Source of the DNA: Candidatus Obscuribacteraceae bacterium
Lineage (GTDB): Bacteria; Cyanobacteriota; Vampirovibrionia; Obscuribacterales; Obscuribacteraceae
Assembly: GCA_044226015.1 (NCBI GenBank)
Contig: JBGAHS010000001.1
Coordinates: 544,001 to 608,000 of the forward strand
Length of the DNA stretch: 64,000 nucleotides
Direction of reading: 5' to 3'
The notes under the pieces were generated by a model that saw nothing but the letters and a program-made list of their open reading frames with translations, was not told the DNA's origin and made no database searches. Made by a program: the position numbers and the translations under genes. Positions 33,369 through 52,154 of this stretch are shown here, one piece after another; position 1 is the stretch's first letter; each line of letters starts with the position of its first letter.

Positions 33369-34133
33369 TTAGCCCTTGCGCCTTCTGCCAGCAAGCTGCC
33401 GAGCAGCTTGAAGTCCTCTCAGAAGCTGCAATGGATGCGGAGGACAGCCAGGAATGAACAGGTCGACGGGCAGAATACTCTGAACTCCGTTAGCCTCAGC
33501 ATAGCCGTGTTCGTGCATGCCCCCTGAGATAGCACATGTACCACATGCAATCACAATTCTTGGGTCTGACATTGCGTCATAGCAAGACAATAATGCGTGA
33601 TGCATTGCTTTTGGTACTGGTCCTGTGACCACCAGAGCATCTGCATATCTTGGTGACGCCACGACGTGAATGCCAAAACGTTCAGCATCAAAAATAGGGT
33701 TGTTTGCTGCGGACAATTCTAAGTCACACGCAGAACAGCCAGTCGAAACTACTCGAACAGCAAAAGATGATTGAAACAATCCTCCTTGCGCAGCGCTGTC
33801 TTCGGCTGCTTTGCTTTTGCTGCTAAAAAGTAAATCTTCTCGTTTGAAGGCATATGTTGCTGTTGAAAGGTCGTTTGCAAAAATTTTCTCGGGGCAAGTA
33901 TCGATGCATTGCGCACAGGTTATGCACGCCCCCCTATCGACTACAATGCCACCGCTTTGATTTTGCGTGATTGCGTTTGTAGGACAGAGATCGATACATT
34001 CTGTGCATGAGTCTTTGCAATCATCAGATGTGACAAGTGGAAATCCCAGAAGTGACTTATCCTCCAAGGTTTCAGGAAGTTTCTTGTTGGTGACCACACC
34101 GTTCTGAATCAGGTAAGAGAGTAGGCGAAGCAT
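33369..34133 (-). CDS. Ehr small subunit: 2x[4Fe-4S] ferredoxin (NuoI/HyfH-like) fused to a NuoB/HyfI-like domain
   Basis: CxxxCxxCxxxCP and CxxCxxCxxxCP, then GCSAC, SPRYAD.LVVTGP, GTCA, PGCPP. Confidence 0.9.
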   Translation of the reverse strand: MLRLLSYLIQNGVVTNKKLPETLEDKSLLGFPLVTSDDCKDSCTECIDLCPTNAITQNQSGGIVVDRGACITCAQCIDTCPEKIFANDLSTATYAFKREDLLFSSKSKAAEDSAAQGGLFQSSFAVRVVSTGCSACDLELSAANNPIFDAERFGIHVVASPRYADALVVTGPVPKAMHHALLSCYDAMSDPRIVIACGTCAISGGMHEHGYAEANGVQSILPVDLFIPGCPPHPLQLLRGLQAARQLAGRRRKG

Positions 34134-34143
34134 TTTTTTTACC

Positions 34144-35616
34144 TCACAGGTCGTGGCCGCTATAGGACAGTGCGAAACTTTTATTGCATATTGGGAAATC
34201 TGCCACCAGGTTGTTGCGCACAGCGATGGCGAGAGCGGTCCAATTGTTTACGCTGGGATCTTTTATGCAATATCGTTTTATTGCTCCGTTTGAGTCAGTG
34301 AATAATAGATGAATCAGTTCGCCGCGGTGGGCTTCTGTGATGCCTACAGCAACTGCATTTTTTGGCAGGGTTTTCAGTGCAGGGGGAATTTTAAGTGTTG
34401 AACAATTGATGTCCTCCACAAGCAATTCCAATAGATTCAAGCTAGATTTTATTTCTCGAATTCGAACCTTTGCACGTGAGAAGACATCTCCATTTGGCTC
34501 GGTCACGAGCTCAAATTTCTCTGCAGGAAATTTGCCATCACTGTAAAACTGTCTGCAATCGTAATTCACTCCTGAGGCACGAGCGCCAACTCCCACTATG
34601 CCGAAATCTAGAGCAAGTCTCTGAGATACCTTTCCGACTTTGTCCATTCTGTCGGCTAGAACTTGATTGTCAAAGAAAAAATCAAAAACCGGTCCGAGCT
34701 TCTTTCGCAAATCAGCAGCCGTTTCTTTGAACTCACTCAATGCCTCTTTTGATGGAACACGAGTAACACCGCCGGGGCAAACATAGGCGCGCATAAAGCG
34801 ATTGCCGCCGAGCAATTCACCAAGTCGCAGGGCTATACCCCTTAGTCTTGCCATTGAAGATGATATCGCAAGAAAACCGACGTCCCCAGCCAGTCCACCA
34901 AGGTCTGCAATGTGCATCGCGATTCGCTCTACTTCGAGTGCTGCGTTGCGAAGTAGAGACATGCTCGCTGGCACGTCGATTTCTGCTAGTGATTCCAGTA
35001 CTGTGGCGTTTGCCAGTGCATTGGCGACTGCCATGTCACTTGCAGTGGCTTCTGCCAGGAAGCGCGTCTTTGCAATTGGCACCTCTGTCATGCGTTTTTC
35101 GACACCTCGATGAAGGTAGCCCAATCTTATTTCCAGATTGAGGATGATTTCACCTGAGCAACTAAATCTAAAATGTCCCGGCTCGATGATGCCAGCGTGA
35201 ATTGGACCCACCGGTATCTCATAAATGCCTTCGCCTTCGACATCGAGAAAGGTGTACTTGCGATCATTGGCTGTGCGTTCAAGCTTTGCCAGGGGAGGCG
35301 GCACAAAAGCAAAGGGCTCATGCAGGTGCGTGTGTTTGAGCCTTGGATGTCCCTCTGGCATCAGTCCAAACATATCCCAGATAGTTCTTTCAAACCAATG
35401 AGCCTGCGGAACAGATGGAGTGATGGAATGATAGTTGTCGCCTGTGATTGGCGTTTCAAAGCACTGAATATGGTGCTTCTCTGGCGAAACTAGCAATGTG
35501 ATAAGTTGGCTTCCATCAATTGAGGTAATGGCTGCAAGTCGATTGCCAGCACCAAGTTGAGATTTGATGGATGACGTTCTTTCATCTAGTTCGAGATGTT
35601 GTAGCTCTATTTTCAT
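34144..35616 (-). CDS. Ehr large subunit (HycE/HyfG-like, NuoC+NuoD fold), no NiFe ligands
   Basis: GPIHAGIIEPGHFRF, GYLHRGVEK, EAHRGE, KDPS; C-terminus DFPICNKSFALSYSGHDL instead of DPCxxC. Confidence 0.9.
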   Translation of the reverse strand: MKIELQHLELDERTSSIKSQLGAGNRLAAITSIDGSQLITLLVSPEKHHIQCFETPITGDNYHSITPSVPQAHWFERTIWDMFGLMPEGHPRLKHTHLHEPFAFVPPPLAKLERTANDRKYTFLDVEGEGIYEIPVGPIHAGIIEPGHFRFSCSGEIILNLEIRLGYLHRGVEKRMTEVPIAKTRFLAEATASDMAVANALANATVLESLAEIDVPASMSLLRNAALEVERIAMHIADLGGLAGDVGFLAISSSMARLRGIALRLGELLGGNRFMRAYVCPGGVTRVPSKEALSEFKETAADLRKKLGPVFDFFFDNQVLADRMDKVGKVSQRLALDFGIVGVGARASGVNYDCRQFYSDGKFPAEKFELVTEPNGDVFSRAKVRIREIKSSLNLLELLVEDINCSTLKIPPALKTLPKNAVAVGITEAHRGELIHLLFTDSNGAIKRYCIKDPSVNNWTALAIAVRNNLVADFPICNKSFALSYSGHDL

Positions 35617-35620
35617 CTTA

Positions 35621-37042
35621 CTACCACAGTAATTTTGGTGCGGATGTTAAGCCGCAAATGATACTCAGCAAAATCAAAATGGCAGGTATGATACTCGATT
35701 GAATGACTGGTAGAGCCACCACACCTTGCTTCGGAGTGCCTGAGACCATTTTTCCAACGTGCATTGTCACAGAAAGGAAACTCAGCACCAGGGCGATAAG
35801 CAAGACAGCAACAACGCCCCACATATTGTGCTCGGCTCCATTTGCAAGCAAAAGCCACTCTGCTGCAAATGCACCGAATGGTGGCGCTCCTGTAACTGCA
35901 AAAGCGCCCAGCAAAAGACCTATTGCCCAGGCAGGGTTTGCCGCGAATAGTCCTCTGATCTCATTAAGTGATTTTGTTCCAGTTGCTTGAATTATATTGC
36001 CTGAAAGGAGGAACAAGGCAACTTTTGGTGCACTGTGATTGAGTGCCAAAATAAATAAAAGTGGACCAGAATCCAGCCCGATTGCAATTAGCATCAGTCC
36101 TGCGCTCTCTATACTCGAATATGCAAACAATCGCTTGATTCCGTGTTGTCTGATCAAGAAGATGCTTGCCATCAGTACAGTTATTACACCCATTGCGATA
36201 GCCGTGTTTTCTATGAGAATCTTGTGACCTGAAGCGAAAACTATCTCGGACACGCGGAAGATTGAAAAGATTGTGCAGTTCAGGAGTCCGCCCGAAAGCA
36301 TGGCTGATGCTGGCGCTGGAGACTCCGAGTAAGCATCTGGAAGCCAGCCGTGTAAAGGGAAAATTCCAGCTTTTGTGCCGTAACCAAGCAGGCAGAACAG
36401 GAATCCTAACCGTAGCAAAGGATACTGAAGATGTTTTGCATTGCTAATGAGGGTTTGCAAATCGAGAGAACCCTCCGGCGTGGCACCATATTGGCTGGAA
36501 GCGAAAATGCACATCGTTCCGAACAGTGCAAAGGCTATGCCCACGCTGCAAATCATCAAGTATTTCCAGGCGGCCTCAAGCGCGTGCTTATTGCGGTGAA
36601 AATAGACGAGCGGGGCTGAACAGAGGGTCGTAGCTTCAACGCTAATCCACAAGAAACCAAGATTGTTGCAAAAGAATACTGAGGTCATCGCAAGCAGAAA
36701 TAAGGTGGCGCAAGTATAAAAGATACGCAGCTGTATGAGCCTGTCGCTTGCCTGCTCATCGTCTCGTTGAAAAAATAGATGAGCATGCGTCATAGACGAC
36801 GCCACCACAAGTTGTATCAGAACGCAAAAGCTGGCACCCAAATGCGAAATGCTGAACTCTTTAGCAAGTGTGAATTCAGGTACTGTGCCGCTGAGCACCG
36901 GCATGAGGACATAAACGACTATTCCCATTTGCACCCAGAACAGCAAAGCTGAAAGGGAGCTTATGATATTAGTTTGTTTGATTGTCCAAACAAGTAGCAA
37001 TATCACTGCCGGTATGACTAAAAGAAGAGGAAGTGCTGGCAT
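35621..37042 (-). CDS. HyfF-like proton-translocating membrane subunit
   Basis: WISVEATTL, EAAWKY, GYGTKAG..PLHGWLPDAYSESP. Confidence 0.9.
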   Translation of the reverse strand: MPALPLLLVIPAVILLLVWTIKQTNIISSLSALLFWVQMGIVVYVLMPVLSGTVPEFTLAKEFSISHLGASFCVLIQLVVASSMTHAHLFFQRDDEQASDRLIQLRIFYTCATLFLLAMTSVFFCNNLGFLWISVEATTLCSAPLVYFHRNKHALEAAWKYLMICSVGIAFALFGTMCIFASSQYGATPEGSLDLQTLISNAKHLQYPLLRLGFLFCLLGYGTKAGIFPLHGWLPDAYSESPAPASAMLSGGLLNCTIFSIFRVSEIVFASGHKILIENTAIAMGVITVLMASIFLIRQHGIKRLFAYSSIESAGLMLIAIGLDSGPLLFILALNHSAPKVALFLLSGNIIQATGTKSLNEIRGLFAANPAWAIGLLLGAFAVTGAPPFGAFAAEWLLLANGAEHNMWGVVAVLLIALVLSFLSVTMHVGKMVSGTPKQGVVALPVIQSSIIPAILILLSIICGLTSAPKLLW

Positions 37043-37045
37043 CAG

Positions 37046-37699
37046 TTACTCCTTCAAGTCGGCGAGCATTGTCACATCAATGTGCTCGAAATTCTTCTTG
37101 ATTCTGAATGCAATCAAACCTGCAATCATCACGCCTGCAAGCACATCGAGGAAAATGCCGGTTTCAACAAGCAGCGGCATGCCATGTGTTTGAGTCAACC
37201 CAAAAAGATATATGCCATTTTCTAGAACCAAAAATCCGATTATCTGGCTCAGCGCAATTCTTCGCGTTAGCATCAAGACCAGTCCAGTGCAAACCAGAGA
37301 TATCGCCGAGGTGGCACTTGGCCAGCCAGCTCCGCTAAGAGCAGGAACAGGAAGTTGTTTAGCGAGAATATATGAAAGCGCCATGAATCCGATGGATAAG
37401 TGCATCGCCAGTGGTGAAGCCAGGAGGGTACCGCTATCTCTTTGAACATCTACCTTACGAATGATGAACATCAAAAATACGGGAATGCCTATGGCTTTAA
37501 TCGCATAGAAAGCGACTGCAATCAGATACAAATGTGTGCTTGCTCGTTTTGCCGCAAAGAGGGCTGTAACAATTGCCAGCAATATTGTTTGAATCGAAAA
37601 CATTGATACATTCAGGCGTAAATGCGTTGAGCCCACCATTAGGGCGGCTACTACTGCCGAGAGCAAGCAAATCAAGTCTATGGAAGATAGGTGCGTCAT
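37046..37699 (-). CDS. HyfE-like membrane subunit
   Basis: GFLVLENGI, P.LVETGIFLDV; ATG at 37699 overlaps the upstream stop (ATGA coupling). Confidence 0.88.
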   Translation of the reverse strand: MTHLSSIDLICLLSAVVAALMVGSTHLRLNVSMFSIQTILLAIVTALFAAKRASTHLYLIAVAFYAIKAIGIPVFLMFIIRKVDVQRDSGTLLASPLAMHLSIGFMALSYILAKQLPVPALSGAGWPSATSAISLVCTGLVLMLTRRIALSQIIGFLVLENGIYLFGLTQTHGMPLLVETGIFLDVLAGVMIAGLIAFRIKKNFEHIDVTMLADLKE

Positions 37700-38616
37700 A
37701 TGATTGTTACTCCTATTGCCACAAGAGAAGCGATCAGGGCAAAGGTCAGAGCGTAAGCGATGAACTCTGGTGCTTTGCGCCAGTTGAGTTTTACCACCAG
37801 AGACTCGAAGACGCCGACAGTTAGAGCCACGCTGCAGGTCGCCGCAATGCTTGCCAGCGACAGTTGCCAGTGATTGAGTCTTTGTATTGATGACAATGAA
37901 TGAAGGTAGCACTGAGCTGACAGACCAAACAAAATCGTCAAGCGTAAGCAATGTCCATATTCGAAAAGCGCGAGGTTTTTTCCTGAAGCTTCAAGAATCA
38001 TCGCTTCGTGAACCATCGTGAGTTCAAGGTGTGTGGTCGGGTCATCGATTGGCATTCTGGAGAGCTCTACCAGGCTTGCTAGCAAGAAAGCTGTTGCGGA
38101 CATAACCCAAATAGCTGGATTGCAATTGGTTTGTGCAAAAATCACGTTCAAGTCTGATGAATGCGCTGACACAGCTAATGCAGCCAGGCTAAGCACCGCT
38201 GCCGGTTCTGTCAAAAATGAAAGGGTTGCTTCTCTGCTAGCTGCAAAGGCTCCGAAGGCAGAGCCTGTGTCCATAGCTGCTAGCATTGTCACAAGTCTGA
38301 TTCCAGCAAACATGTACAAAACCAAGAAAAGATCACACGGTCCCAAATTTGGTTTCGGCGATATCCAGGGCAAAATCATTGATAAATAAACTGAGCCAGC
38401 GACACCAAATGCAGCTGAGAAACGAAATACCCATGATGCTGTTTCGCTCAGTGTTTCGTTTTTTCGAAGCAACTTTACGAGGTCTAGCAACGGCTGCCAG
38501 ATAGGTGAACCAACGCGGTTTTGTAATCGAGCTTTTGTTTTGCGAAGCAGACCCAAAACCAGCCCAGGCAAAATCAGCGTATAAACAAGTAAGCATGCAA
38601 AATCGATGCTTACCAT
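37696..38616 (-). CDS. HyfC/HycD (NuoH-like) membrane subunit
   Basis: KARLQNRVG.PIWQP..DL.KL, GAFAASRE, RMPIDDPTTHLELTMVHEAMILE. Confidence 0.9.
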   Translation of the reverse strand: MVSIDFACLLVYTLILPGLVLGLLRKTKARLQNRVGSPIWQPLLDLVKLLRKNETLSETASWVFRFSAAFGVAGSVYLSMILPWISPKPNLGPCDLFLVLYMFAGIRLVTMLAAMDTGSAFGAFAASREATLSFLTEPAAVLSLAALAVSAHSSDLNVIFAQTNCNPAIWVMSATAFLLASLVELSRMPIDDPTTHLELTMVHEAMILEASGKNLALFEYGHCLRLTILFGLSAQCYLHSLSSIQRLNHWQLSLASIAATCSVALTVGVFESLVVKLNWRKAPEFIAYALTFALIASLVAIGVTII

Positions 38617-40568
38617 AGCAATGTACCTGCGAGCACCAGGACAACCAGCGTTACGCAAACGTACATCAGATATAGATGTATGCTGCCAGCTTGCAGTTTT
38701 GCCACGAGCTGTGAAAGGCGAACTAAAAACGCAGCTGCGGGCTCATAAACCCTTGATTCAAGCAAAGATACCATCGATGGGTCAACGACAATCTTCTCTG
38801 GAAAGTGTCTTCGGTCTTGTCCTGTGATTTCTACTGTGAGGTGGTACTGCAAAACCGGAGTGAAAATTCTTGCGATAGGTTGGGCAAAGCTGTCTGCTGT
38901 AACCTGGCTCTTACTCGTTCCTGAGCCAAAGCCACAATCCCAGGTTATGTATTTGTCTGGAGCACGCTTCAAAATGAGAATGTAAATCAATGACAGGGTG
39001 AAAACGAGAGCAATTGCAACTTGCCAGAGTGGTATTTGAGCAAAAGAGATTGCCAGTGCTTGATTCCCAAAAGCCTGATTAAGCAGAGGCTTAATTGGCG
39101 CGATCAGCCATTTAGCGCTAACGCCGGTGCCGATGCAAGCAAGCGCCAGAATAATTTGCGCTGCAAGCATATCTCGTGGAACTTCGCTTGCATTTTTTGT
39201 TCTAGTTGAACGTGGATTGCCGAGAAATGCAACACCGATGGCTTTTGCATAAGTTGCAATCGACAGCGCCCCGACTGCGGCCAGCACGCCTATGGCGGCG
39301 ACAGCGATGGCTCTGTCTAAGAGTGTTGGCATCGTAAACGATGATTGTAGAAGTGCCTGGTAGAGGCACCACTTACTTGCAAAAATGTTTAATGGCGGCA
39401 ATGCGCAAATCGCTGCGCTACCGAGGAAGAAACAAACCCCCGTGAATGGCATGTTTTTGTTCAGTCCACCGAGTACGGCAAAATCACGCGAGTGCGTTGC
39501 GAAATCTACTGAGCCAGCGCTCAGGAAGAGCAAGCTTTTGCAGAGCGCGTGAGCAAAGCAATGCAATAAAGCTGCTAAGAGTGCAATTTCGGCAAGCGCC
39601 GCTAGCCCCATATTTTTAGCCCAGATGCATAATGCCAGTGACATACATATGAGACCGACATTTTCAACGGTGCTGTATGCCAGAAGTCTTTTAAGCTCGC
39701 GCTGGTTAATTGCGAACAGGACACCCCAAAATGCTGAAACTGTTGCCATGGCAAACGCAATGTATGCCAGTACCTGGGAACTTAAATTTCCGAGTACAAA
39801 GAATCTGATGATGGCATAGATAGCTACCTTAACCATTACTCCGCTCATTAAGGCTGATACCGGACTTGGTGCCTCTGGGTGCGCGTGTGGTAGCCAGATG
39901 TGAAAAGGCCAGACTCCAGCTTTTACAATAAGTCCGAACAGAATCAGTCCTGCAGCCAGGTAAGTAGATGGTTCGGCGAATTGCCAGGACGAAAAGTCGA
40001 CGCTATGGAACTTTGCATACATCATCAAGAAACCCGCGGACAAAAATGCGCTGGCGAGCCTGGTGGCAACCAGGTATATGAAAGATGCATGTTGCGCTCG
40101 TTGTTTTCTGTACTCAGAAACCACAAGTAATGCTGATGACAGTGACATCATTTCCCAACAAACAAGAAAGACGACTGCATTTGCAGAGAGGATTACACCG
40201 ACCATTCCAGCTACAAAAGCGAAGATGGCAGTCCAGTATATGCGTGAATTTATCGTCTCTTTCAAATGATCTAGATATGGCGGCGAGTAAATTGCACAGC
40301 AAGAGCAAACGATGCCCAAAATCAATACGAAAAAGTTTGCAAGTAGATCCGCCCGCAGAACCACTGGTACGAAGCCAATCGCGACCCAGGGCGGAGCCTG
40401 CCATGCAATGTTAGTGTTCCATGTGATCAGCGCCCCCGAAGCAAGCGCTACGCCAATGATTAGCAGAAAGAATGAGGAAATGCGATTTCCAAGTTTCAAA
40501 AATGCAGAGAGGACTGCAAAAACTGCGGGAGCAAAAAAGGATACTGCTGGGACTAATTCAGTCGTCAT
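38610..40568 (-). CDS. HyfB (NuoL/MrpA-like) membrane subunit
   Basis: WEMMSL, KAGVWPFHIWLPHAHPEAPSPVSALMSG, KRLLAYSTVEN, TWDCGF. Confidence 0.92.
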   Translation of the reverse strand: MTTELVPAVSFFAPAVFAVLSAFLKLGNRISSFFLLIIGVALASGALITWNTNIAWQAPPWVAIGFVPVVLRADLLANFFVLILGIVCSCCAIYSPPYLDHLKETINSRIYWTAIFAFVAGMVGVILSANAVVFLVCWEMMSLSSALLVVSEYRKQRAQHASFIYLVATRLASAFLSAGFLMMYAKFHSVDFSSWQFAEPSTYLAAGLILFGLIVKAGVWPFHIWLPHAHPEAPSPVSALMSGVMVKVAIYAIIRFFVLGNLSSQVLAYIAFAMATVSAFWGVLFAINQRELKRLLAYSTVENVGLICMSLALCIWAKNMGLAALAEIALLAALLHCFAHALCKSLLFLSAGSVDFATHSRDFAVLGGLNKNMPFTGVCFFLGSAAICALPPLNIFASKWCLYQALLQSSFTMPTLLDRAIAVAAIGVLAAVGALSIATYAKAIGVAFLGNPRSTRTKNASEVPRDMLAAQIILALACIGTGVSAKWLIAPIKPLLNQAFGNQALAISFAQIPLWQVAIALVFTLSLIYILILKRAPDKYITWDCGFGSGTSKSQVTADSFAQPIARIFTPVLQYHLTVEITGQDRRHFPEKIVVDPSMVSLLESRVYEPAAAFLVRLSQLVAKLQAGSIHLYLMYVCVTLVVLVLAGTLLW

Positions 40569-40810: not shown

Positions 40811-40842
40811 GCATCTGCGAATATACGTATATTCGAAGATGC
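40811..40842. promoter_or_regulatory. 32-bp near-perfect palindrome, putative ArsR operator upstream of hyfB
   Basis: GCATCTGCGAATATACGTATATTCGAAGATGC; the core 40818-40835 is a perfect 18-bp palindrome. Confidence 0.65.
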
Positions 40843-40926
40843 TAACACGCAATTGTGGCCGCCATGTGACCACCGGAAACCTATGAACGTGTTCCATTGC
40901 AAAGAGCAAACTGTTTTTTTTGAGTC

Positions 40927-41244
40927 TTAAAGTGATTCGAGCATGTCTTTCACACCAACCAGGTGGTTGTTGAAAATTTCCTTTGCCACATCAAGCATTT
41001 TGAATATTGTCGGGTCAGTGCAAGCGTAGTAAATGTTGCTGCCTTGTTTTCGACCGACGACAATGTTTTTTGAGCGAAGTATGGAAAGCTGCTGCGAAAC
41101 ATTGGCAGCTTCTACATCTAGTCGAGACTTAAGTTCAGATACAGTCAGTTCGCCATTTCGCAATTCGTCCAGAATATTTATTCTTAGCGGACTGGCAAGC
41201 GCCTTGAAAAATTCGGCTTTAAATTCCTGCAATTTGTTCGGCAT
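40927..41244 (-). CDS. ArsR/SmtB-family regulator (Rv0081-like)
   Basis: KAEFFKALASPLRINILDELR...VSQQLSILR...RKQG.NIYY. Confidence 0.92.
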   Translation of the reverse strand: MPNKLQEFKAEFFKALASPLRINILDELRNGELTVSELKSRLDVEAANVSQQLSILRSKNIVVGRKQGSNIYYACTDPTIFKMLDVAKEIFNNHLVGVKDMLESL

Positions 41245-41269
41245 AAACTTGACTCGCGATACGTTGATT

Positions 41270-41305
41270 ATTTGATGATATACGCATATTGAAAAATTTT
41301 GTAGT
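41270..41305. promoter_or_regulatory. Degenerate operator copies upstream of ArsR-1
   Basis: Minus strand ATATGCGTATATCATCAAAT (14/20 to the 47201 site), adjacent to ATATTGAAAAATTTTGTAGT. Confidence 0.45.
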
Positions 41306-41585: not shown

Positions 41586-41605
41586 ATATTCAAACTCTTG
41601 CATAT
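41586..41605. promoter_or_regulatory. Operator copy upstream of the ABC-HlyD-TolC operon
   Basis: Minus strand ATATGCAAGAGTTTGAATAT, 17/20 to the consensus ATATGCAAATGTTTGAACAT. Confidence 0.6.
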
Positions 41606-43443: not shown

Positions 43444-43444
43444 T

Positions 43445-44854
43445 ATGAATCTAGAAACTAAATCATCCAATAGTTCATCGTTAAGTGCTTCATCCTATGA
43501 GTCATTGAAAGCTGTGCAGTCACCTCAAGCCTTTGGCACCATTGCGATATTGCTTTTTGTAGTTCTCATTTCCGTTATTCTAGTGCTGGCTTATGTGCCA
43601 TGGCAGCAAAGTGTTTCAGCTTCGGGAAAAATCATCATTTTTTCTCCTATGCAGCGTCCTCAAAATATTGAGGCTCAGATTCCTGCAAGATTGAAGAAAT
43701 GGTATGTCCAAGACGGACAGGTCGTTCACAAAGGCGAGTTGATTGCTGAGTTGTCTGATCTAGACCCGAAGTTTCTTGACCCACAATTAGCTAAGCGCTT
43801 ATCTTCTCAAATACAAGCTCTAACTGCCAGGCGCGAAGCAGCAGCTACACGAAGTAGCGCTCTGACCAAGCAACTTGAGAGTTTGCGTCGCTCGCAGAAA
43901 GCTGCGATTCCTTCTGCAGGGGAAAGAGCCCAGCAAGCGGAAGACAGAGTGTGGGCAGCTTCGCAGGCAGTGGATGCGGCAAAGCAAAACATAATAACTA
44001 CCGAAGCAAATTTGAATCGATTGAAAGATCTCTATTCGAATGGATTGCGCTCTAAGCGAGATCTTGAACTTGCTGAGCTTGAGCAAACGAAGGCAGCTAC
44101 TGAGCTTGAACGTGCGCGAGCTGCTCTAGACGTGGCAAAAAGAGATAAGACTGTTGCTGTCTTAGATCAAGACAAAGTTGCTGCAGATACTGATGCTGCT
44201 CTGAGTAATATTGGTGCATCCATAGCTGCGGCTCAGGAGACGATCGAAACAACATCGAGTGACATATTCAAACTCGAAATTGAGTTGCAGAATTTTCAAG
44301 GACGTGCAGAACAAAGAAAAGTTTTTGCTCCAACAAATGGCAAGATTGTCAGACTTTTGAAAGTAGGTGCTGGCGAAACGGTTGATGCTGGAATGGTCTT
44401 AGCAGTCATCGCGCCTGAGACGCAAGATCTCGCTGCAGAGCTGAATATCAGCGATAACGATGCCCCATTGGTTGCTGTAGGCAGACCTGTAAGACTTCAG
44501 TTTGCTGGCTGGCCGGCATTGCAATTCTCTGGCTGGCCCTCGATTGCCGTTGGAACCTTTGGTGGCAGAATTGCAGTTATCGATGCTATTGATGATGGAC
44601 GCAATAATTATCGGGTGATAGTCAAACCTGACAAAGAGGCAATAGCGCAGGGTAGAGATGAGCCGTGGCCTGATTCAAAATTTCTGCGACCAGGAGCGGA
44701 AGTTTCTGGGTGGATTATGTTAGATCGAGTTAGCCTTGGATTTGAGTTATGGCGCCAATTTAACGCGTTCCCACCGACAGTAAAACCGGAAGAGCTTGGC
44801 TTGCACAAGTCGCCTCAAGGTGAAAAGCCGGACATAAAGAGAAAGTCCAAGTGA
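43445..44854 (+). CDS. HlyD-family membrane fusion protein
   Basis: N-terminal TM, PWQQ, long coiled coil, VRLQFAGWPALQFSGWP, LGFELWRQFNAFPP. Confidence 0.92.
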   Translation: MNLETKSSNSSSLSASSYESLKAVQSPQAFGTIAILLFVVLISVILVLAYVPWQQSVSASGKIIIFSPMQRPQNIEAQIPARLKKWYVQDGQVVHKGELIAELSDLDPKFLDPQLAKRLSSQIQALTARREAAATRSSALTKQLESLRRSQKAAIPSAGERAQQAEDRVWAASQAVDAAKQNIITTEANLNRLKDLYSNGLRSKRDLELAELEQTKAATELERARAALDVAKRDKTVAVLDQDKVAADTDAALSNIGASIAAAQETIETTSSDIFKLEIELQNFQGRAEQRKVFAPTNGKIVRLLKVGAGETVDAGMVLAVIAPETQDLAAELNISDNDAPLVAVGRPVRLQFAGWPALQFSGWPSIAVGTFGGRIAVIDAIDDGRNNYRVIVKPDKEAIAQGRDEPWPDSKFLRPGAEVSGWIMLDRVSLGFELWRQFNAFPPTVKPEELGLHKSPQGEKPDIKRKSK

Positions 44855-44864
44855 GGCAGCAAAA

Positions 44865-46340
44865 ATGTGCTTGAACTCGCAAAAATTGTTTTTTGTGGTT
44901 TTGTTGTGCGCAACAGAATTGCTAACTTGTGCTGCAACGTTTGCGCAAAACGAAGCAATTGAACCAAATGTTGTTTTGCGAGAGCTTCCCACTTCGACTA
45001 GCACTCAGGGTCAACCATTCTCTTTAGATTTTTTCTTGAAGGCTGTGGAAAGAAATTATCCAAAGCTGAAAAGTGCCGACGCGGAGAAGCGTATAGCGAA
45101 TGCTAAGCGCCTGGAGAAAGCTGGTGCCTTTGACCCTGTTTTGACTAGCGTGAACGAGTATCTCAGAGTCCAAGATTCATTCATTCCGGGAAAACCGAAA
45201 AACGCAGTACATAATGAATCGCGTGTTGATCTCCTCACTAGATCTGGCATAAAACTATTTACCGGCGCTCGTTTGAACCCCAACGATACAAAGACACCAT
45301 TTGTGCCAACAGGAAGAGCTGGCGAATATTATGGTGGCGTTGCTGTCCCGCTGCTTCGCGGCTTGCGCATCAATGAGAAAAAAGCAGCTGAAGACCAGGC
45401 CAAGCTCGGTGAGCCACTAGCAGGTCATGTATTTGCTTCCACGCGTCTTGAATTACTTTTGAAAGCCGCAGCTTCTTACTGGGAATGGGTCGGAGCAAAA
45501 GCGCGCATCGACATTTCTCGAAACCTCCTCAATTTAGCACAGGCAAGGGTTAGCCAAATCAAGCGACGTGTAGATAAGGGTGACTTGCCTGCTCTTGATG
45601 TAGCGGAGTCTGAGCAAGAAATTCACCGGCGTGAAGCGGCACTTGTGAAAAGCGAACGCGAGTTCCAAAAGTACTCATTGCTTCTTTCTGTATTTTTGTG
45701 GGATGAATCGGGAAACCCTTCTCCTGTCCCCACTGAGAAAGGTGTTCCGTCCTTAGAGCCTGAGCCCAGCAAAATCTCAGAGGCGGAATGGAGCGAAGGA
45801 AGAAAGCGAGCTATAGAGCTGCGACCTGAACTGAAGCGAATTTCGATGGAACGAGAGCAAGCCAGAGTTGATTTGCGATTAGCCGAAAATATGATGCTTC
45901 CGGTTATGGATGCTTATCTTGCCCAGGGGGCAGATACAGGCACTCAAGGCATCGGCCCTGTCGTGAGAGGCGGAGTCTCTCTTTCCGTTCCGCTGAGACA
46001 AAGGACCGCTAGAGGTTTGGTACAGGCCGCTAAGTTGAAGATTCAGAAGCTAACTTTCGATGAAACTGCGGAGAAACAGCGTATACAAGCTGAAGTCGAC
46101 GATGCTGTCTCTGCTGTGAATACATCATGTGAACGATGGAATGCGACTCTTCTCGAGGTGAAAAAGGCAAAACAAGTTGAAAATGGCGAGCGCTTGCGTT
46201 TCGGCTCAGGTGATAGCACCTTATTTCTCGTCAACCAGCGAGAGCGTGCCTCAGCCGAAGCGCAGATGCGACTCGTTGAAGTACATACGGAGTACTTACA
46301 GGCGCTGGCAGCGTTTCGTGCTGTAATCTGTCGACTGTGA
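44865..46340 (+). CDS. TolC-family outer membrane protein
   Basis: Signal peptide, GAFDP, PLLRG, GE.LRF..GDSTLFLVNQRE. Confidence 0.9.
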   Translation: MCLNSQKLFFVVLLCATELLTCAATFAQNEAIEPNVVLRELPTSTSTQGQPFSLDFFLKAVERNYPKLKSADAEKRIANAKRLEKAGAFDPVLTSVNEYLRVQDSFIPGKPKNAVHNESRVDLLTRSGIKLFTGARLNPNDTKTPFVPTGRAGEYYGGVAVPLLRGLRINEKKAAEDQAKLGEPLAGHVFASTRLELLLKAAASYWEWVGAKARIDISRNLLNLAQARVSQIKRRVDKGDLPALDVAESEQEIHRREAALVKSEREFQKYSLLLSVFLWDESGNPSPVPTEKGVPSLEPEPSKISEAEWSEGRKRAIELRPELKRISMEREQARVDLRLAENMMLPVMDAYLAQGADTGTQGIGPVVRGGVSLSVPLRQRTARGLVQAAKLKIQKLTFDETAEKQRIQAEVDDAVSAVNTSCERWNATLLEVKKAKQVENGERLRFGSGDSTLFLVNQRERASAEAQMRLVEVHTEYLQALAAFRAVICRL

Positions 46341-46374
46341 AAGAATTGATCTTGACCAATATGTTGATATATAG

Positions 46375-46394
46375 ATATGCTAATGTTTGAACAT
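46375..46394. promoter_or_regulatory. Operator copy upstream of ArsR-2
   Basis: ATATGCTAATGTTTGAACAT, overlapping a possible -10 of TTGACC-N18-TATGCT. Confidence 0.7.
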
Positions 46395-46412
46395 TACAAA
46401 ATGAGGTCGCCC

Positions 46413-46796
46413 ATGCCTTACAGAGCTGTGGTAAGCGCGGAATTGGCAAAGCTATTTGGCATTTTGTCTCATCCCATACGTATTCGAATCATTGAAGAGT
46501 TAAAGAAAGAAGATCTGACTGTTGGAACCTTGAAAGATATCCTTGGCATAACTCATTCGGCAGTGTCACAGCAGCTAGCCGTCTTGCGCACCAATCATTT
46601 GGTAGCTGAAATGCGGCAAGGTCGAAACGTGTTTTACCATCTTCGCAAGCCGGAATTGGCTCAGTGGATCATGGATGGTGTCAGCTTTATATCACCCGAT
46701 GCTTCCGAGATGGAGCAGATGATGTCTGCAATTCAAAACGTGAAGTCTGTATGGGGCGAAGAAGAGAAGCCAAAGCGCAAGAAGCGCGGAGCCTGA
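46413..46796 (+). CDS. ArsR/SmtB-family regulator (no Cys)
   Basis: LSHPIRIRIIEEL...VSQQLAVLR...RQGRNVFY; GAGGT RBS before ATG at 46413. Confidence 0.9.
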   Translation: MPYRAVVSAELAKLFGILSHPIRIRIIEELKKEDLTVGTLKDILGITHSAVSQQLAVLRTNHLVAEMRQGRNVFYHLRKPELAQWIMDGVSFISPDASEMEQMMSAIQNVKSVWGEEEKPKRKKRGA

Positions 46797-47049
46797 ATTC
46801 TGATTTCGCTGTCCTGTTGCATGCAGCTTAGAGCCAGTGGTAATTTGAGTGCTCGGCTAATTCGCCTGAGTGCTTTATATGATCCTGCCGAATTGCTCGT
46901 GTTTGGAATCTTGTGGCGCTAATTGAAGGCAAGAGAATATGCTGAAAAATGCAACGTTCAACCACTAGAAACAATTTTGTGTAAATGCTGCAGTCATCTT
47001 ACAGGAACTCTCTTTCTGTATGCTTTCAATGGAAATATGCTTTGATAAT

Positions 47050-47069
47050 ATATGCAAATGTTTGCACAT
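47050..47069. promoter_or_regulatory. Operator copy (distal) upstream of the murF-like/dabBA operon
   Basis: ATATGCAAATGTTTGCACAT. Confidence 0.7.
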
Positions 47070-47151
47070 CTAAATATTTAAGGATAACCCGCGCTGTTTT
47101 GCGTACGGCTGTTTCCGGACTTTGAAGCTATTTGAGAGCACTGTGCCATTA

Positions 47152-47179
47152 TTGACACGCCATAGCTTGCGGTTATACT
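47152..47179 (+). promoter_or_regulatory. Sigma70-type promoter of the murF-like/dabBA operon
   Basis: TTGACA-N16-TATACT. Confidence 0.7.
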
Positions 47180-47200
47180 TCTAATTATTGTGATATCTAA

Positions 47201-47220
47201 ATATGCAAATATTTGCACAT
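47201..47220. promoter_or_regulatory. Operator copy (proximal) between promoter and RBS
   Basis: ATATGCAAATATTTGCACAT, near-palindromic. Confidence 0.75.
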
Positions 47221-47228
47221 AAAGCGAG

Positions 47229-48215
47229 GTGCTTATGTACGCTGAATTTACCGCGAACGAAATTTTGAATGCAACTGTTGGTCGTCTCGAATCAGGAAGT
47301 CCCGATGGTGGAAAGGGCAATCTGGTTTGGGATTTCGGCGAAATTAAAGAGGGTGATTGGTTCCTAGCTCTCAGCTCAGCAAGCGATGATCCACACGATT
47401 GTCTTGACCTTGCCTTTCAGTGCGGTGCCCGCGGAGTGATAGTGAATCGGAGGAATCGCTATGCTTCAGCACCACGAGGCTCGACTATCATCACCGTAGC
47501 TGACACCACTACCGCGCTGATAGATCTCGCACGCCACTGGCGCCATACGCTTAACCCCAAAGTTGTAGGGGTGACAGGCAGTTTCGGAAGACGTGCTACC
47601 ATGCTCTTGCTGAATCAATTGCTGCAAAGTAAATTCAGCACTCATCTTGCCTTTGTTGGAAGTATGGGGCGCCTTTCATGTGCGAAGGAAGTCCTGGCAA
47701 TGCCAGTGGGCACCGAAGTTCTCATATTCGAGGCTGGTGCAATAGAACGAGGTGACATCACAAGAATTGGTGGTGCACTCGAACCAGACCTCGCCGTTTT
47801 GACCCAAATTCGACATCCATTGCCGTCCGCTGCTCGTGATACCTTCGTTTCTGCCCTCTACTGTGAGTTGCTCGAGACTGTCTCAAGTCAGGACGAAGAC
47901 TTACCTTCTGCTGTAATTTACGATGACAATACTTCTGTTCAAGCGCGTGTGGATTCCGTAGCAAAAGATATGAATCTGCGACGCTTTTCGCAGGGTGAAC
48001 TTGGAATTGTCAATTCACTGTCAGAAAGTTTTGTGCGAGATCTGAGTCAGGCGATGCAAACAGCAATCGGTCATGCTGTCTCGCGTGCAGAAATTTGGTG
48101 CGCTGTGGAAGCTGCACAAGTTTTGGGAATCGGCACAGACACCTTGCAAGAGATCTTTGAAGTGCGTGCCTCGGCACAGCAGTCTGATGCACCGTATTGT
48201 GAACTTCTTATATAA
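47229..48215 (+). CDS. Degenerate, C-terminally truncated MurF-like protein
   Basis: MurF-like N-terminal domain, VADTTTALIDLARHWR...VVGVTGS, but GRRAT in place of GKTT; 328 aa. Confidence 0.75.
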   Translation: MLMYAEFTANEILNATVGRLESGSPDGGKGNLVWDFGEIKEGDWFLALSSASDDPHDCLDLAFQCGARGVIVNRRNRYASAPRGSTIITVADTTTALIDLARHWRHTLNPKVVGVTGSFGRRATMLLLNQLLQSKFSTHLAFVGSMGRLSCAKEVLAMPVGTEVLIFEAGAIERGDITRIGGALEPDLAVLTQIRHPLPSAARDTFVSALYCELLETVSSQDEDLPSAVIYDDNTSVQARVDSVAKDMNLRRFSQGELGIVNSLSESFVRDLSQAMQTAIGHAVSRAEIWCAVEAAQVLGIGTDTLQEIFEVRASAQQSDAPYCELLI

Positions 48216-48226
48216 CGTGAGGAAAA

Positions 48227-49705
48227 ATGACTACAGAAATTTTTGTTGTTAATGAAATACTCGCTTTGTTAGTGCTTCCGCTGGCACTGCTGGCAAGCTT
48301 TCTTCTACCTGGCGAGTCGAAAGTAAAAGCCTTATTACTCAGCCAGTTATGTGCATTCGCTCTGGCACTAATTGGTGGGATTTTGAGGCTTGCAGTTCCA
48401 CAGCTGCCAGTCCTTGCAGGAGCCGAGTTCTTCTCCTTTCATTTCAACGCTATGTCATCTTGTCTGCTGGCAGCAGTTCTTTTCATAGCCTCAGTGGTTT
48501 TAGTGTTTAGCGAAAGATATTTGAGTGGTGAAACAAATCGCTTGAATTTCTTGCGGGGTATCATGCTGCTAAGTTCTGCTGCTTCACTTCTTACAGTCAC
48601 TGACAGCATTGTCACTGCAATAGTTTGCTGGCACGTTCTGTCCTTGGGGCTCTGGTCTTTGATGCGAATGCAGCCTCTCAGTTCGCGACAAGCCGAAGGC
48701 GTCATACTCTTTCACCTGTCGAGTGATTTGTTGATGCTGCTTGCAAGCGTGTTGGTCATTGTTTATGGTTCTTGCACGAGATTTAGTGAATTGAGTGCTG
48801 ATGCTCATCTCAGTGGAGTCCAAAATGGAATTGTATCTTCACTACTAGTGCTCGCTTTCGGAATTAAATCTGCACTTTTCCCTTTCCATAAGTGGTTGTT
48901 GAACACGCTGAATGCTCCTACACCCTTGTCTGGACTTTTGCATGCGGGTGTGGTGAACGTTTCGGCTGTGATGGCTCTCAATTTCAGCCCGATATTATCT
49001 GGGCAAACGATGGTGATGCTTGCTTGGGCATCTTGGGCTGCAATTTCTGCAATGCTGGGTACCCTGAGTATGTCAGCGCAGCCCGATGTGAAAAGAAAAC
49101 TTGTCTACTCTACAGTTGGGCAGATGGGATTCATGCTGTTGCAATGCGCTAGTGGTGCATATGCTGCGGCCATCTTCCACTTAATCGCTCACGGAATGTT
49201 CAAATGCCATATGTTTCTCCAGTCAGGAAGCGCAGTTGCAGATGGAATAGCTAAGCGCAAGTTTGCATATGTTGGAGATTCGAATCTTGCGAATTTGCTC
49301 TGCGTAACACTGCTGTCTACAGCTTGCTGCGTCGGAATGCTCTTTCTAAGAGACTTCAACTGGACAGTGATCTCAGCTCTGATAACTGCTGCTGCCGTGT
49401 CCTGTGCTATTCCGACTCTCGGCAGAGTGCGATTTGCCACGCTGTCTGCTTTCTGGCTTCTTTGTATTGGAGTTGTTTCACTGGCGGAACTATTCAGTCT
49501 TAAACTCGAGTCACTCTCAGTGGTGACCCAGGGGGATAATTCACTCTTCTTGGCTCTAGCGCTATTGGTCTTTGCCCTTGGCTCAGTTTTTCTGGCGTTC
49601 ATTCGTGAGAGCCGCTTGTCTAAATGGATTTATGTTCAGGGACTGAATGGTTTCTATGCCGATGAGATGGGTGCGGCGGTATTGCGCAGTATCAATGGCA
49701 AGTAG
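48227..49705 (+). CDS. dabB: DabB/MpsA-like (NuoL-like) membrane subunit of an inorganic carbon transporter
   Basis: KSALFPFHKWL...APTPLSGLLHAGVVN, KRKLVYSTVGQMGFM, FHLIAHGMFK; immediately upstream of dabA. Confidence 0.85.
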   Translation: MTTEIFVVNEILALLVLPLALLASFLLPGESKVKALLLSQLCAFALALIGGILRLAVPQLPVLAGAEFFSFHFNAMSSCLLAAVLFIASVVLVFSERYLSGETNRLNFLRGIMLLSSAASLLTVTDSIVTAIVCWHVLSLGLWSLMRMQPLSSRQAEGVILFHLSSDLLMLLASVLVIVYGSCTRFSELSADAHLSGVQNGIVSSLLVLAFGIKSALFPFHKWLLNTLNAPTPLSGLLHAGVVNVSAVMALNFSPILSGQTMVMLAWASWAAISAMLGTLSMSAQPDVKRKLVYSTVGQMGFMLLQCASGAYAAAIFHLIAHGMFKCHMFLQSGSAVADGIAKRKFAYVGDSNLANLLCVTLLSTACCVGMLFLRDFNWTVISALITAAAVSCAIPTLGRVRFATLSAFWLLCIGVVSLAELFSLKLESLSVVTQGDNSLFLALALLVFALGSVFLAFIRESRLSKWIYVQGLNGFYADEMGAAVLRSINGK

Positions 49706-49742
49706 ACCACATTTGCTTGATAGTTTTTTTTCTGGAGGAAAC

Positions 49743-52154
49743 ATGATTAATAGTCCTACGAAGTCGGCTGACACATTGACTGATGCAATTGAAGAAGCTA
49801 CAGCTTGTCTTGGTTTTCTTTATCCACTAAGCAATTTCATTGCATGTAATTCTCTGAAAGGATTTGAGGATCTGCCCTTCCACGCTGCTATGAGGGCTGC
49901 CAGGGAACTCTTCGGATGTCGCGGATTCCTGCCCCTTGCAGATTTCAGAGCCATGTATGAGTCGGGGCGAATTTCTCCTGCTAACTTGCAGCTGGCTTTC
50001 CACAAAAACCAGCGTGCAAAAGCAATTACTCCAAGCTATTCAAAACGACAATTTTGTATCGCTGAATTGTTGGATAAGAACGCAGGTACAGATATCGTAG
50101 AGACGATCAACAAGCAAATGATCAAATGGTGTAACGCCTATTTGGATAGTACTCAAGCTCAGAATAAGCCTCACGTAAATGGCGGTTTCTTCATGTTCTG
50201 GAAAAATCTGGCGAGATACGACTTTTCTTTGATCTTCAAGCAAGTTCCCTATTCTTCTGAAGTTATTGATTATTTGCCTGAGAACTCAGAAGATGCGCTT
50301 GATGGTTTGCTCTCAGAGTTGGAGTTAAAGAAAGAGCAAATCGCAGCGTATTTGACTCGCCATGCTGTTCACTTGCCCGGAATTACGAGCCACCTGAAGT
50401 GGCGCGACAAGGAAGGCATTGAACCTGGAATTCTCACTGACTATCTGGCTATTCGACTTTATTATGAAAAGATACTGAGCCAGTCTATTAGCCGCAAACT
50501 TTATCGTAGTGTTGATCTGGCTCTTGTTCGCTCACTTTTAGAGGCAGAACTTGGTGAGGAAGTTGAAGAGTCAGAGGACTATGGACCCGTTTGGCTTGAA
50601 GCATACGAACTGAATTTCCGAGACAAGTTGCTCGCTTCTCTCAAACCAAAAGACGACAGCACCCAGGAGTCCAAAGACTGTCAATTAGTGTTTTGTATAG
50701 ATGTTCGCTCTGAACCTGTTCGAAGAGAACTAGAAGGAACGAATAAATATTCGACTTTCGGATTCGCGGGTTTCTTTGGTATGGCGATGCAATTGACCGA
50801 ACTTGGCAGCAAATTGCCGCTCGATCTCTGCCCTGCGTTGATCAAACCTGATAAGAAGGTAAGAGAGTATGCCACCGGTGACGGTGCCAGCAAGAAGCTC
50901 GATTGGCAGGCATTGAAGACCTCTGCCTTGCTGCTAAAAAAGCGGCTTAAGTGTGATCTTGCAAGCGCCTTCGGACTTGTCGAATCCATAGGAATATTCT
51001 CGGCGCTGCCGCTTGCGGCAAAGACTTTCTTTCCTGAATTTTCTCTAGGGCTTGTGGACGAACTAGAGCAAAAACATGCGGCGTGCTCGCCAACGAAACT
51101 AGACTGCTCTGCGATATCTGTGAAAGATAGAGTTGCTATGGCTGAAGGGGCTATTAAAGGAATTGGACTCAAGCAGTTCGGGAAACTGATAGTGCTTTGC
51201 GGACACAGAAGTAGTTCAGTGAACAATCCCTTTGCTGCTTCTCTCGACTGTGGTGCTTGTGGTGGCAACGGCGGTGGCGCTAGTGCAAGACTGGCGGCTG
51301 ACATATTGAATGACACTGAGGTCAGGCTCAGGCTTGTAGAGCGTAAGATTCTAATACCATCAGGCACTTTGTTTGTCGCTGCTGAACATGACACCACCAC
51401 TGATGAGTTCACCGTTTTTGAGCCTGTGAAGGTTTCAGTCGAGCAGCTGCGAATTTTGGATGAACTGCGTGATGACCTCGCGATAGTTGGACAGAAAGCT
51501 CGCGCGAAAAGGGAAAAGCTACTTCCAAAAACCTGTTTGCCTAAACTCAATGCGCCAGAAATTCGTGCGAAAGATTGGGCGCAGATTGCTCCTGAGTGGG
51601 GCTTAGTTGGAAACGCTGCCTTTATTGCTGCTCCGCGCTGGGTTTCGAAAGACGCAGACCTTGAGTCTAGAGTCTTTCTGCATTCCTATGAGTGTGATAA
51701 TGACCCCGGCAACAAGGTGCTTGAATTGATAATGACTGCACCGCTTGTGGTGGCGCAGTGGATAAATGCACAGTACTACATGTCTACTGTCGATAATGAA
51801 ACTCTGGGTAGCGGTAGCAAGGTGTTTCATAATGTCGTTGGCGACTTTGGTGTGATGCAGGGTGAGTCTAGTGATTTGAAGATGGGACTTCCCCGGCAGT
51901 CGGTGATGACCGTGGAAGGGATAAGACATGAACCCATGCGCTTGCTTGCGGTAATTAGAGCGAAGTGTTCTTCAATCGATAGCGTTTTGCGGGCTCACCC
52001 AGAAGTCAGAAAACTTGTCGTGAATCAATGGATTCGCCTGGTTGCAATAGAACCTGAAACAGGAGTTTTCTTTGAAGCTGAAGATTGCGAGAAATGGTTC
52101 CCGCTGCATCTAGGGAGTTCACAGGTTGCCGTTGACCTGGCTATGAGCGTGTAG
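49743..52154 (+). CDS. dabA: DabA/MpsB (DUF2309) beta-carbonic-anhydrase-like subunit
   Basis: FCIDVRSE, GFAGFFG, LCGH, LDCGACGG, PEWGL, FLHSY, WINAQYY, HEPMRL; GGAGG RBS before ATG at 49743. Confidence 0.93.
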   Translation: MINSPTKSADTLTDAIEEATACLGFLYPLSNFIACNSLKGFEDLPFHAAMRAARELFGCRGFLPLADFRAMYESGRISPANLQLAFHKNQRAKAITPSYSKRQFCIAELLDKNAGTDIVETINKQMIKWCNAYLDSTQAQNKPHVNGGFFMFWKNLARYDFSLIFKQVPYSSEVIDYLPENSEDALDGLLSELELKKEQIAAYLTRHAVHLPGITSHLKWRDKEGIEPGILTDYLAIRLYYEKILSQSISRKLYRSVDLALVRSLLEAELGEEVEESEDYGPVWLEAYELNFRDKLLASLKPKDDSTQESKDCQLVFCIDVRSEPVRRELEGTNKYSTFGFAGFFGMAMQLTELGSKLPLDLCPALIKPDKKVREYATGDGASKKLDWQALKTSALLLKKRLKCDLASAFGLVESIGIFSALPLAAKTFFPEFSLGLVDELEQKHAACSPTKLDCSAISVKDRVAMAEGAIKGIGLKQFGKLIVLCGHRSSSVNNPFAASLDCGACGGNGGGASARLAADILNDTEVRLRLVERKILIPSGTLFVAAEHDTTTDEFTVFEPVKVSVEQLRILDELRDDLAIVGQKARAKREKLLPKTCLPKLNAPEIRAKDWAQIAPEWGLVGNAAFIAAPRWVSKDADLESRVFLHSYECDNDPGNKVLELIMTAPLVVAQWINAQYYMSTVDNETLGSGSKVFHNVVGDFGVMQGESSDLKMGLPRQSVMTVEGIRHEPMRLLAVIRAKCSSIDSVLRAHPEVRKLVVNQWIRLVAIEPETGVFFEAEDCEKWFPLHLGSSQVAVDLAMSV

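Follow-up and report, generated by a model that had tools for sequence, protein, structure and literature searches.

A 64,000-nucleotide (nt) stretch of the genome of Candidatus Obscuribacteraceae bacterium (assembly GCA_044226015.1, contig JBGAHS010000001.1, positions 544,001 to 608,000; hereafter the window, whose own coordinates are used throughout) carries side by side the six-gene operon of an Ehr complex, an exporter composed of ATP-binding cassette (ABC), HlyD-family and TolC-family proteins, and the genes of a DabAB pump, together with two genes for ArsR-type regulators, arsR1 and arsR2. DabAB hydrates CO2 to bicarbonate using the proton-motive force; for Ehr complexes we know of no function. 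The question raised by this locus is whether the whole block is under one control and serves inorganic carbon, as an earlier note on this DNA had proposed. Operators and gene neighbourhoods suggest another answer: the block most likely consists of two sister ArsR regulons side by side. In fact, Ehr goes with an ArsR clade and a box of its own and has dabA as a neighbour in one of 60 relatives (G052), which speaks against a single regulon, and a different palindrome joins the exporter, arsR2 and dabBA.

Operators and regulators of the block

On the minus strand arsR1 heads hyfB, hyfC, hyfE, hyfF, ehrL and ehrS, in that order, with gaps of -7 to +10 nt among the six Ehr genes. On the plus strand abc-hlyD-tolC (41659-46340) is followed by arsR2, a murF-like gene, dabB and dabA, which ends at 52154. 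A second cysD copy, starting 58 nt beyond dabA and outside the block described earlier, is likely co-transcribed with dabA; cysD adjoins dab also in the relatives G036, G052, G046 and G060. Open reading frames (ORFs) and profile matches to Pfam and NCBIfam bear out the genes and the order given in the earlier note, and the named close homologues belong to Obscuribacterales and Melainabacteria. The features are the following.

33369 to 34133, minus strand: ehrS, N-terminal 2x[4Fe-4S] ferredoxin fused to a NuoB/HycG-like domain (Pfam Fer4 and Oxidored_q6)
34144 to 35616, minus strand: ehrL, HycE/NuoCD-like large subunit without NiFe CxxC motifs
35621 to 37042, minus strand: hyfF-like antiporter-type membrane subunit
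37046 to 37699, minus strand: hyfE-like small membrane subunit (NF008556; ATG at 37699, start placed by the profile match)
37696 to 38616, minus strand: hyfC/NuoH-like membrane subunit (PF00146)
38610 to 40568, minus strand: hyfB-like antiporter-type membrane subunit
40813 to 40832: candidate Ehr operator (B-type box), in a 32-bp palindrome (40812-40843), 245 nt 5' of hyfB
40927 to 41244, minus strand: arsR1, Rv0081-like ArsR/SmtB regulator of the Ehr-associated clade
41270 to 41289: weak palindrome 5' of arsR1, not significant
41586 to 41605: box A 5' of abc, score 25.4, genome rank 3
41659 to 43443, plus strand: ABC exporter (transmembrane and ATPase parts), no peptidase domain found
43430 to 44854, plus strand: HlyD-family periplasmic adaptor (Pfam)
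44865 to 46340, plus strand: TolC-family outer-membrane channel (Pfam)
46375 to 46394: box A 5' of arsR2, overlapping the -10 hexamer of a sigma70-like site (46352-46381)
46413 to 46796, plus strand: arsR2, cysteine-free ArsR of the abc/dab-associated clade (methionine start at MPYR placed from homologues)
47050 to 47069: box A, distal copy 5' of the dab operon, score 27.7, genome rank 2
47152 to 47179, plus strand: sigma70-like promoter, 11/12 consensus matches
47201 to 47220: box A, proximal copy, score 28.8, rank 1, between the promoter and the murF-like start
47235 to 48215, plus strand: pseudo-MurF, truncated, P-loop Lys replaced by Arg
48227 to 49705, plus strand: dabB, Mrp/NuoL-like membrane subunit
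49743 to 52154, plus strand: dabA (PF10070), Zn-site Cys/Asp/His/Cys kept; longest ORF from 49647
52213 to 53031, plus strand: second cysD copy, NF003587 above cut-off, no adjacent cysN

The palindrome of the plus-strand units, box A, is present in four copies over three units (41586, 46375, 47050 and 47201) and was examined with reciprocal matrices, one built from the four window sites and scored on the relatives, the other built from 49 sites of the relatives only and scored on the genome. The window-built matrix reaches at least 14 upstream of abc in 12 of 16 relatives, of arsR2 in 9/14 and of the murF-like gene in 5/6; upstream of hyfB it does so in 1/42 and of arsR1 in 0/25. With the relatives-only matrix, 47201, 47050, 41586 and 46375 occupy, in this order, ranks 1-4 across the 8.19-Mb genome, control upstream regions reach box A in 0/31, 0/46, 0/26 and 1/45 cases, and none of 500 shuffles equals the best site in any of the three regions. 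Linkage is conserved as well: exporter and dab are neighbours in nine relatives, an ArsR2-clade gene lies just 5' of dab in 19 of 28 fetched loci, three of which are truncated by contig ends, and in G041, G046, G058 and G040, where abc and dab are on separate contigs, box A stands upstream of both. These results support the view that exporter, arsR2 and dabBA form one conserved putative regulon, as the earlier note had claimed for these units. Moreover, the box A sites overlap or sit 3' of sigma70-like promoters, an arrangement typical of repressor sites.

A wide box A regulon was also considered and dropped, since only three further genome sites score at least 20 (near an alpha/beta-hydrolase gene, a cytochrome c/Usp pair and a GntR/GGDEF region) and none precedes a beta-type carbonic anhydrase (CA) or SulP gene. 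In the contigs L023 and L224 the region directly upstream of exporter/dab genes holds an arsR-betaCA-SulP operon that has box A and is followed by accB and a partial accC. In four high-GC metagenome contigs (L266, L270, L277 and L290) an ArsR2-clade gene is divergent from a distant exporter homologue (37-41%), with a box A scoring 16-27 between the two; the repressor-box-exporter unit reaches beyond the Obscuribacteraceae-related family.

The same palindrome had been described before all four units of the block, and this is where the description has to be corrected: it stands for the abc, arsR2 and murF-dab units and fails for the arsR1/Ehr unit. The site at 41270, before arsR1, is indistinguishable from chance (score 8.0, equalled at 703 genome positions and in 31 of 500 shuffles), aligned arsR1 upstream regions have no invariant column, and the best box A score before hyfB in the window is 4.7, reached by 80 of 500 shuffles. 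A de novo motif search 5' of hyfB in the relatives found instead box B, a palindrome related to box A and having the same TGC-N8-GCA spacing, which is present at 22/25 Ehr loci with a nearby arsR1 versus 1/19 without. By alignment with the nearest Ehr loci, the corresponding footprint in the window is 40813-40832, between arsR1 and hyfB. A quick tree with Shimodaira-Hasegawa-like support (SH-aLRT, 131 columns) places ArsR1 and ArsR2 in separate clades, one found by Ehr and the other by abc, dab or CA genes. Rv0081 of Mycobacterium tuberculosis is the top Protein Data Bank match of ArsR1 (59.2 bits; runner-up 51.8), whose gene stands beside the Ehr operon, in agreement with the Rv0081-like identity given to it before. 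ArsR2 has no cysteine and ArsR1 a single one, and both are below the specific NCBIfam cut-offs of metal and persulfide sensors.

Could one regulon nevertheless embrace the whole block, either ArsR reading all sites and all units being co-induced by inorganic-carbon limitation? The two boxes have their geometry in common; in the nearest Ehr subclade the outer arms of the operator are box-A-like, and on the matrix of this subclade (six sites, one of them poorly placed) the window box A sites score 14.7-21.7; in G006, a relative of the same subclade, hyfB is preceded by a full box A; and Ehr lies within about 9 kb of abc in G052 and one gene away from it in L217, a metagenome contig of the G052 lineage. 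Against this stand the low box A scores before arsR1 and hyfB and the fact that box B tracks arsR1, not dab; moreover, Ehr is present in 55 and DabA in 23 of the 60 relatives, and the two are neighbours in one. A further objection comes from M. tuberculosis, whose hyc operon, probably an Ehr, shows no simple low-CO2 induction in the only expression data found. With CO2 at 0.5%, expression of Rv0081-Rv0086 falls 3.4- to 10.8-fold from pH 7.0 to pH 5.7; going from 0.5% to 5% CO2 raises Rv0081, hycD, hycP and hycQ 2.0- to 3.2-fold at pH 5.7, and at pH 7.0 gives a 1.7-fold rise of Rv0081 and a 1.6-fold fall of hycP (PMC11895460). This operon thus reacts to both pH and CO2, though with no simple low-CO2 uptake pattern, and hypoxia regulators may confound the response. 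We consider a single regulon improbable.

The DabAB pump and the exporter

The product of dabA matches PF10070 with 759 bits, a PF00361-type dabB lies directly upstream, and alignment to the structure 9RD0 shows that four active-site residues are kept (C351, D353, H524 and C539 in DabA2 numbering); with domain, membrane partner and zinc-site residues all present, the sequence supports the assignment as DabBA. DabAB is a demonstrated CO2 pump, and DABs have already been reported in heterotrophs, where they are proposed to supply bicarbonate to ordinary carboxylases (10.1101/476713). The absence of Rubisco, claimed for the window, extends to what is available of the genome: Rubisco, alpha-CA and SbtA have no match in its 8.19 Mb, at 92% completeness. 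The genome encodes a single canonical beta-CA and three SulPs, along with a separate complex I and the large subunit of one NiFe hydrogenase. It also has a CA-like group to which Pfam is blind, both as a C-terminal domain fused to a SulP-STAS protein (L202:4542-7100, G000:C6) and as a gene standing on its own (L205:4154-4816, G000:C10).

In MurF, a lysine carbamate plays a role. The MurF-like protein heading the dab operon has Arg in place of the Lys of the P-loop GKT in 14/14 aligned copies, has lost the AKAK lysine and misses the C-terminal domain, and a full-length MurF is encoded elsewhere in the genome; judged from these residues, the gene is a conserved pseudo-enzyme. A role of the pseudo-MurF as a lysine-carbamate CO2 binder was ruled out, the lysine being lost in 14/14 copies. 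DUF6671 (PF20376), which is not in this window, adjoins dab in 11 loci, often with cysD (L014, L016, L018, L020, L022, L028, L030, L101, L105, L106 and L108).

The second cysD beside dab, here and in four relatives, might point to sulfur: SulP would import sulfate, CysD activate it, beta-CA-like proteins hydrolyse carbonyl sulfide and the ArsRs sense sulfur species. Some beta-CAs do hydrolyse carbonyl sulfide, and both ArsR1 and ArsR2 give sub-threshold matches to BigR; however, sensing by BigR and SqrR relies on a cysteine pair, which neither a cysteine-free ArsR2 nor ArsR1 with its one cysteine can offer. SulP is capable of sulfate transport (PMC10880623), but the dab-linked cysD has no adjoining cysN and DabAB is the CO2 pump already cited (10.1101/476713). 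We hold the sulfur explanation to be very improbable.

None of the listed NCBIfam ABC models is matched above its cut-off by the exporter; neither a peptidase domain in the ABC protein nor a conserved cargo or substrate gene near the exporter loci was found. A close exporter (53-79% identity) is present in 23/60 relatives, and DabA in 16/23 genomes with it versus 7/37 without, related genomes not being independent. Outside the family the picture changes: in Planctomycetota and Myxococcota 1/34 exporter loci is near carbon genes, and among metagenome exporter loci (n=80), beyond the clade of at least 70%, one has dabA and two have SulP about 5-8 kb off. Eight plasmid regions (three with the exporter, five with Ehr) contain no annotated CA, SulP or DUF2309 gene. 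As a consequence of the outside-family loci and the plasmid regions, the exporter as a general part of carbon uptake was dropped; its supposed partnership with the carbon module keeps its ground within the family, where box A and linkage indicate that it is co-regulated with dab, and is mostly not seen outside.

Just 3' of the Ehr operon lies a 3,457-aa ORF rich in Gly, Ser, Ala, Thr and Asn (21972-32345, minus strand), with no Pfam match and weak Atlas leads (at most 0.81) to filamentous-haemagglutinin-like proteins; it has no GGxGxD repeats and is thus not an obvious exporter cargo. Further away are a 905-aa protein with two Roadblock/LC7 domains (19024-21741, plus strand) and two ORFs of 833 aa (57344-59845) and 727 aa (60829-63012) without Pfam match.

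Ehr and inorganic carbon

Aligned to Escherichia coli HycE, EhrL has ATAS in place of CGIC and a cysteine-free stretch in place of the C-terminal DPCYS, so that both NiFe-binding CxxC motifs are gone, as the description of a NiFe-less Ehr implied, and with them the pair of motifs that marks group 4 [NiFe] hydrogenases (Hyc/Hyf). What is present is what is expected of an Ehr: a group-4-like large subunit without NiFe cysteines and the expected set of membrane and Fe-S subunits. Conserved acidic and polar residues stand where the NiFe cysteines were; EhrS keeps its Fe-S cysteine motifs (motif counts, 45 family homologues), and alignment with the genome's own NuoL and NuoM shows the central Glu/Lys conserved in the antiporter-like subunits. 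The window EhrL is closer to EhrL of other genera (63-65%) than to that of its own genus (51-55%), which suggests that the block was assembled from two modules. Ehr is widespread, with about 19,000 stored GTDB stretches by rough estimate; two complete Ehr operons lie side by side in L043 (G035) and in L116 (a Variovorax plasmid).

The tie between Ehr and carbon was assessed by neighbourhood counts, flanks being fetched for 44 of the 55 Ehr-bearing relatives and CA-like proteins being assigned by motif and local profiles. Within 3 kb, 24/44 family Ehr loci have a neighbour of one of three kinds, a canonical beta-CA in 5, a divergent CA-like gene in 11 and SulP in 8, where about 0.6% would be expected by chance from the gene density of this genome and 0/10 control loci of paralogous exporters have such a neighbour. 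The type of partner varies by genus, which indicates repeated association and also speaks against a fixed subunit.

Taken together, operators, neighbourhoods and conserved residues suggest the following reading, on which our confidence and our doubt are about evenly balanced: the two ArsR modules, with their related 20-bp palindromes, would be sister repressor circuits that jointly serve bicarbonate supply and pH balance. ArsR2 would repress the exporter, arsR2 itself and pseudo-murF-dabBA-cysD through box A, and ArsR1 the Ehr operon through the site at 40813; cross-repression may occur in this lineage, where the boxes are similar. DabAB would supply bicarbonate, most likely to ordinary bicarbonate-dependent carboxylases. 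The most likely role for Ehr, which keeps three Fe-S clusters and charged channel residues, with neither a NiFe site nor a fixed CA subunit, is that of an ion translocator linked to redox chemistry, more so than that of a hydrogenase or of a machine dedicated to pumping CO2; it would remove protons or supply a gradient for CA, SulP or Dab activity and probably serves bicarbonate or pH balance.

Several observations weigh against this reading. As regards the operators, the family-wide B matrix gives the 40813 site a weak score (6.5, 27/500 shuffles), and the subclade matrix gives it 16.9, with 12 genome positions as high and two box A sites above it; the latter blurs the split into two regulons and, together with the full box A before hyfB in one relative, makes cross-talk between them possible in this lineage. 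Box A is upstream of none of the genome's beta-CA, CA-like and SulP genes. As regards the neighbourhoods, 20/44 family Ehr loci have no CA, CA-like or SulP neighbour, motifs are divergent in the CA-like proteins, one group of which has no Pfam CA match, and SulP proteins carry sulfate and other anions as well (PMC10880623). Outside the family the link thins out. In a GTDB sample of the best 80 of 597 Ehr matches (3 of 64 parts, many short contigs; all ORFs compared by BLAST, and 118, mostly from 328 close neighbours, with Pfam), 8/78 loci not named Obscuribacterales have SulP (7; five by Pfam and two by BLAST only) or beta-CA (1), one of them also with dabA, and 19 outside-family loci of many other phyla (L123-L196) are headed by an HTH_17 and PTS_EIIA_2 fusion gene (HTH-PTS-IIA) unrelated to ArsR. 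In 151 genomes of Verrucomicrobiota (43 with Ehr, 108 without), beta-CA occurs in 17/43 Ehr genomes versus 51/108 others (p=0.47) and was never seen on the Ehr contig, and DabA occurs in 0/43. Finally, all the functional readings are drawn from gene neighbourhood and motif conservation. Of the carbon tie formerly proposed for Ehr, what stands is the link to CA and SulP neighbours within the family; the outside-family sample and Verrucomicrobiota set limits to its reach.

A stronger reading would make Ehr itself an energised converter of CO2 to bicarbonate, a third type beside NDH-1/Cup and DAB, acting through a CA-like partner or a remodelled pocket of the large subunit. The complex-I-like membrane arm with its charged channel residues and the acidic and polar residues replacing the NiFe cysteines are in line with it, as are CA-like genes directly 3' of ehrS on the same strand in four loci (L036, L039, L047 and L090) and a Planctomycetaceae locus (L156) where dabA, genes for two antiporter-like membrane subunits and one for a SulP-PII fusion come after ehrL-ehrS. 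However, Ehr has no constant partner, this being a canonical beta-CA, a member of one of three divergent CA-like groups, SulP or nothing at all; no CA gene adjoins Ehr in this window, and the M. tuberculosis operon is, at pH 5.7, higher at 5% than at 0.5% CO2 (PMC11895460). Ehr as a substitute for beta-CA in Verrucomicrobiota was likewise rejected, the difference being not significant (canonical CA in 13/43 versus 51/108, p=0.07). We therefore regard the converter as unlikely, if worth keeping in view.

Conversely, Ehr might be a respiratory or fermentative ion pump, coupled for example to formate dehydrogenase or ferredoxin, with no tie to carbon and standing beside Dab by chance rearrangement. 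For sister lineages a complex of formate dehydrogenase and Ehr was put forward (PMC6349859), molybdopterin oxidoreductases have four matches in the genome, adjacency of Ehr and dab is rare, and the greater closeness of EhrL to other genera fits a moved module. On the other hand, this explanation leaves the varied CA, CA-like and SulP neighbours of 24/44 Ehr loci unexplained, and the Pfam-scanned part of the Ehr neighbours contains no formate dehydrogenase match; it appears to us decidedly improbable. The reading preferred here thus stays with an ion translocator serving bicarbonate or pH balance.

DAB, Ehr and ArsR-headed hyc operons were already known. Neither a link between Ehr and carbonic anhydrase nor an ArsR regulon for DAB was found in a literature search that covered few subscription papers, and neither appears in the accessible parts of PMC6349859, PMC10284858, PMC7304191, PMC10432482, PMC10880623 and PMC13144422. 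New here are the physical joining of the two modules, an operator for Ehr that is distinct from box A and goes with ArsR1, the counts over the family, and negative results bounding the generality of the link. For DAB pumps in heterotrophs the locus yields a candidate regulator, a subject on which the same search found no paper, and it provides two defined operators, two small repressors, a six-gene Ehr operon and dabBA as a positive control from the same genome. More speculatively, and with considerable doubt, Ehr complexes including the mycobacterial hyc might form a third class of energy-coupled CO2/bicarbonate machine, and the cysteine-poor ArsR pair an undescribed family of bicarbonate/CO2-sensing repressors controlling them together with DAB and an envelope-spanning exporter.

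Comparison with known systems

The dab operon resembles DAB2 (DabA2-DabB2) of Halothiobacillus neapolitanus and MpsAB in having PF10070 and an Mrp/NuoL-like partner in one operon (PDB 9RD0; 10.1101/476713; PMC13144422). Unlike these, it starts with a pseudo-MurF and ends with cysD, is under an ArsR box common to the ABC-HlyD-TolC exporter, and belongs to a genome in which no Rubisco was found. The exporter has the tripartite architecture of type I secretion and peptide-export ABC-HlyD-TolC systems; its scores are below the family cut-offs of type I secretion (HlyB/LssB/PrtD), and no conserved substrate gene was found nearby.

For a complex-I-like arm coupled to CO2 hydration, the model is the cyanobacterial NDH-1MS/MS' with CupA/CupB (PMC10880623). 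The window Ehr operon encodes neither a Cup-type nor another fixed CA subunit, so the comparison is an analogy only. The Rv0081-Rv0088 locus of M. tuberculosis is closer, an autoregulatory ArsR heading a hydrogenase-4-like operon and binding an upstream inverted repeat, and an anion site has been suggested for Rv0081 (10.1101/465575); in the window, by difference, arsR1 and hyfB flank the Ehr footprint, and a paralogous ArsR circuit for Dab adjoins. With the known Ehr complexes, already reported in Melainabacteria (PMC6349859), the operon shares the six-gene order hyfB-C-E-F-large-small and a large subunit without CxxC. The accessible Ehr literature proposes electron transfer or a formate dehydrogenase partner, not a role in carbon or pH; beyond it, an ArsR-tied operator is defined here and the bias of Ehr neighbourhoods towards CA and SulP is counted.

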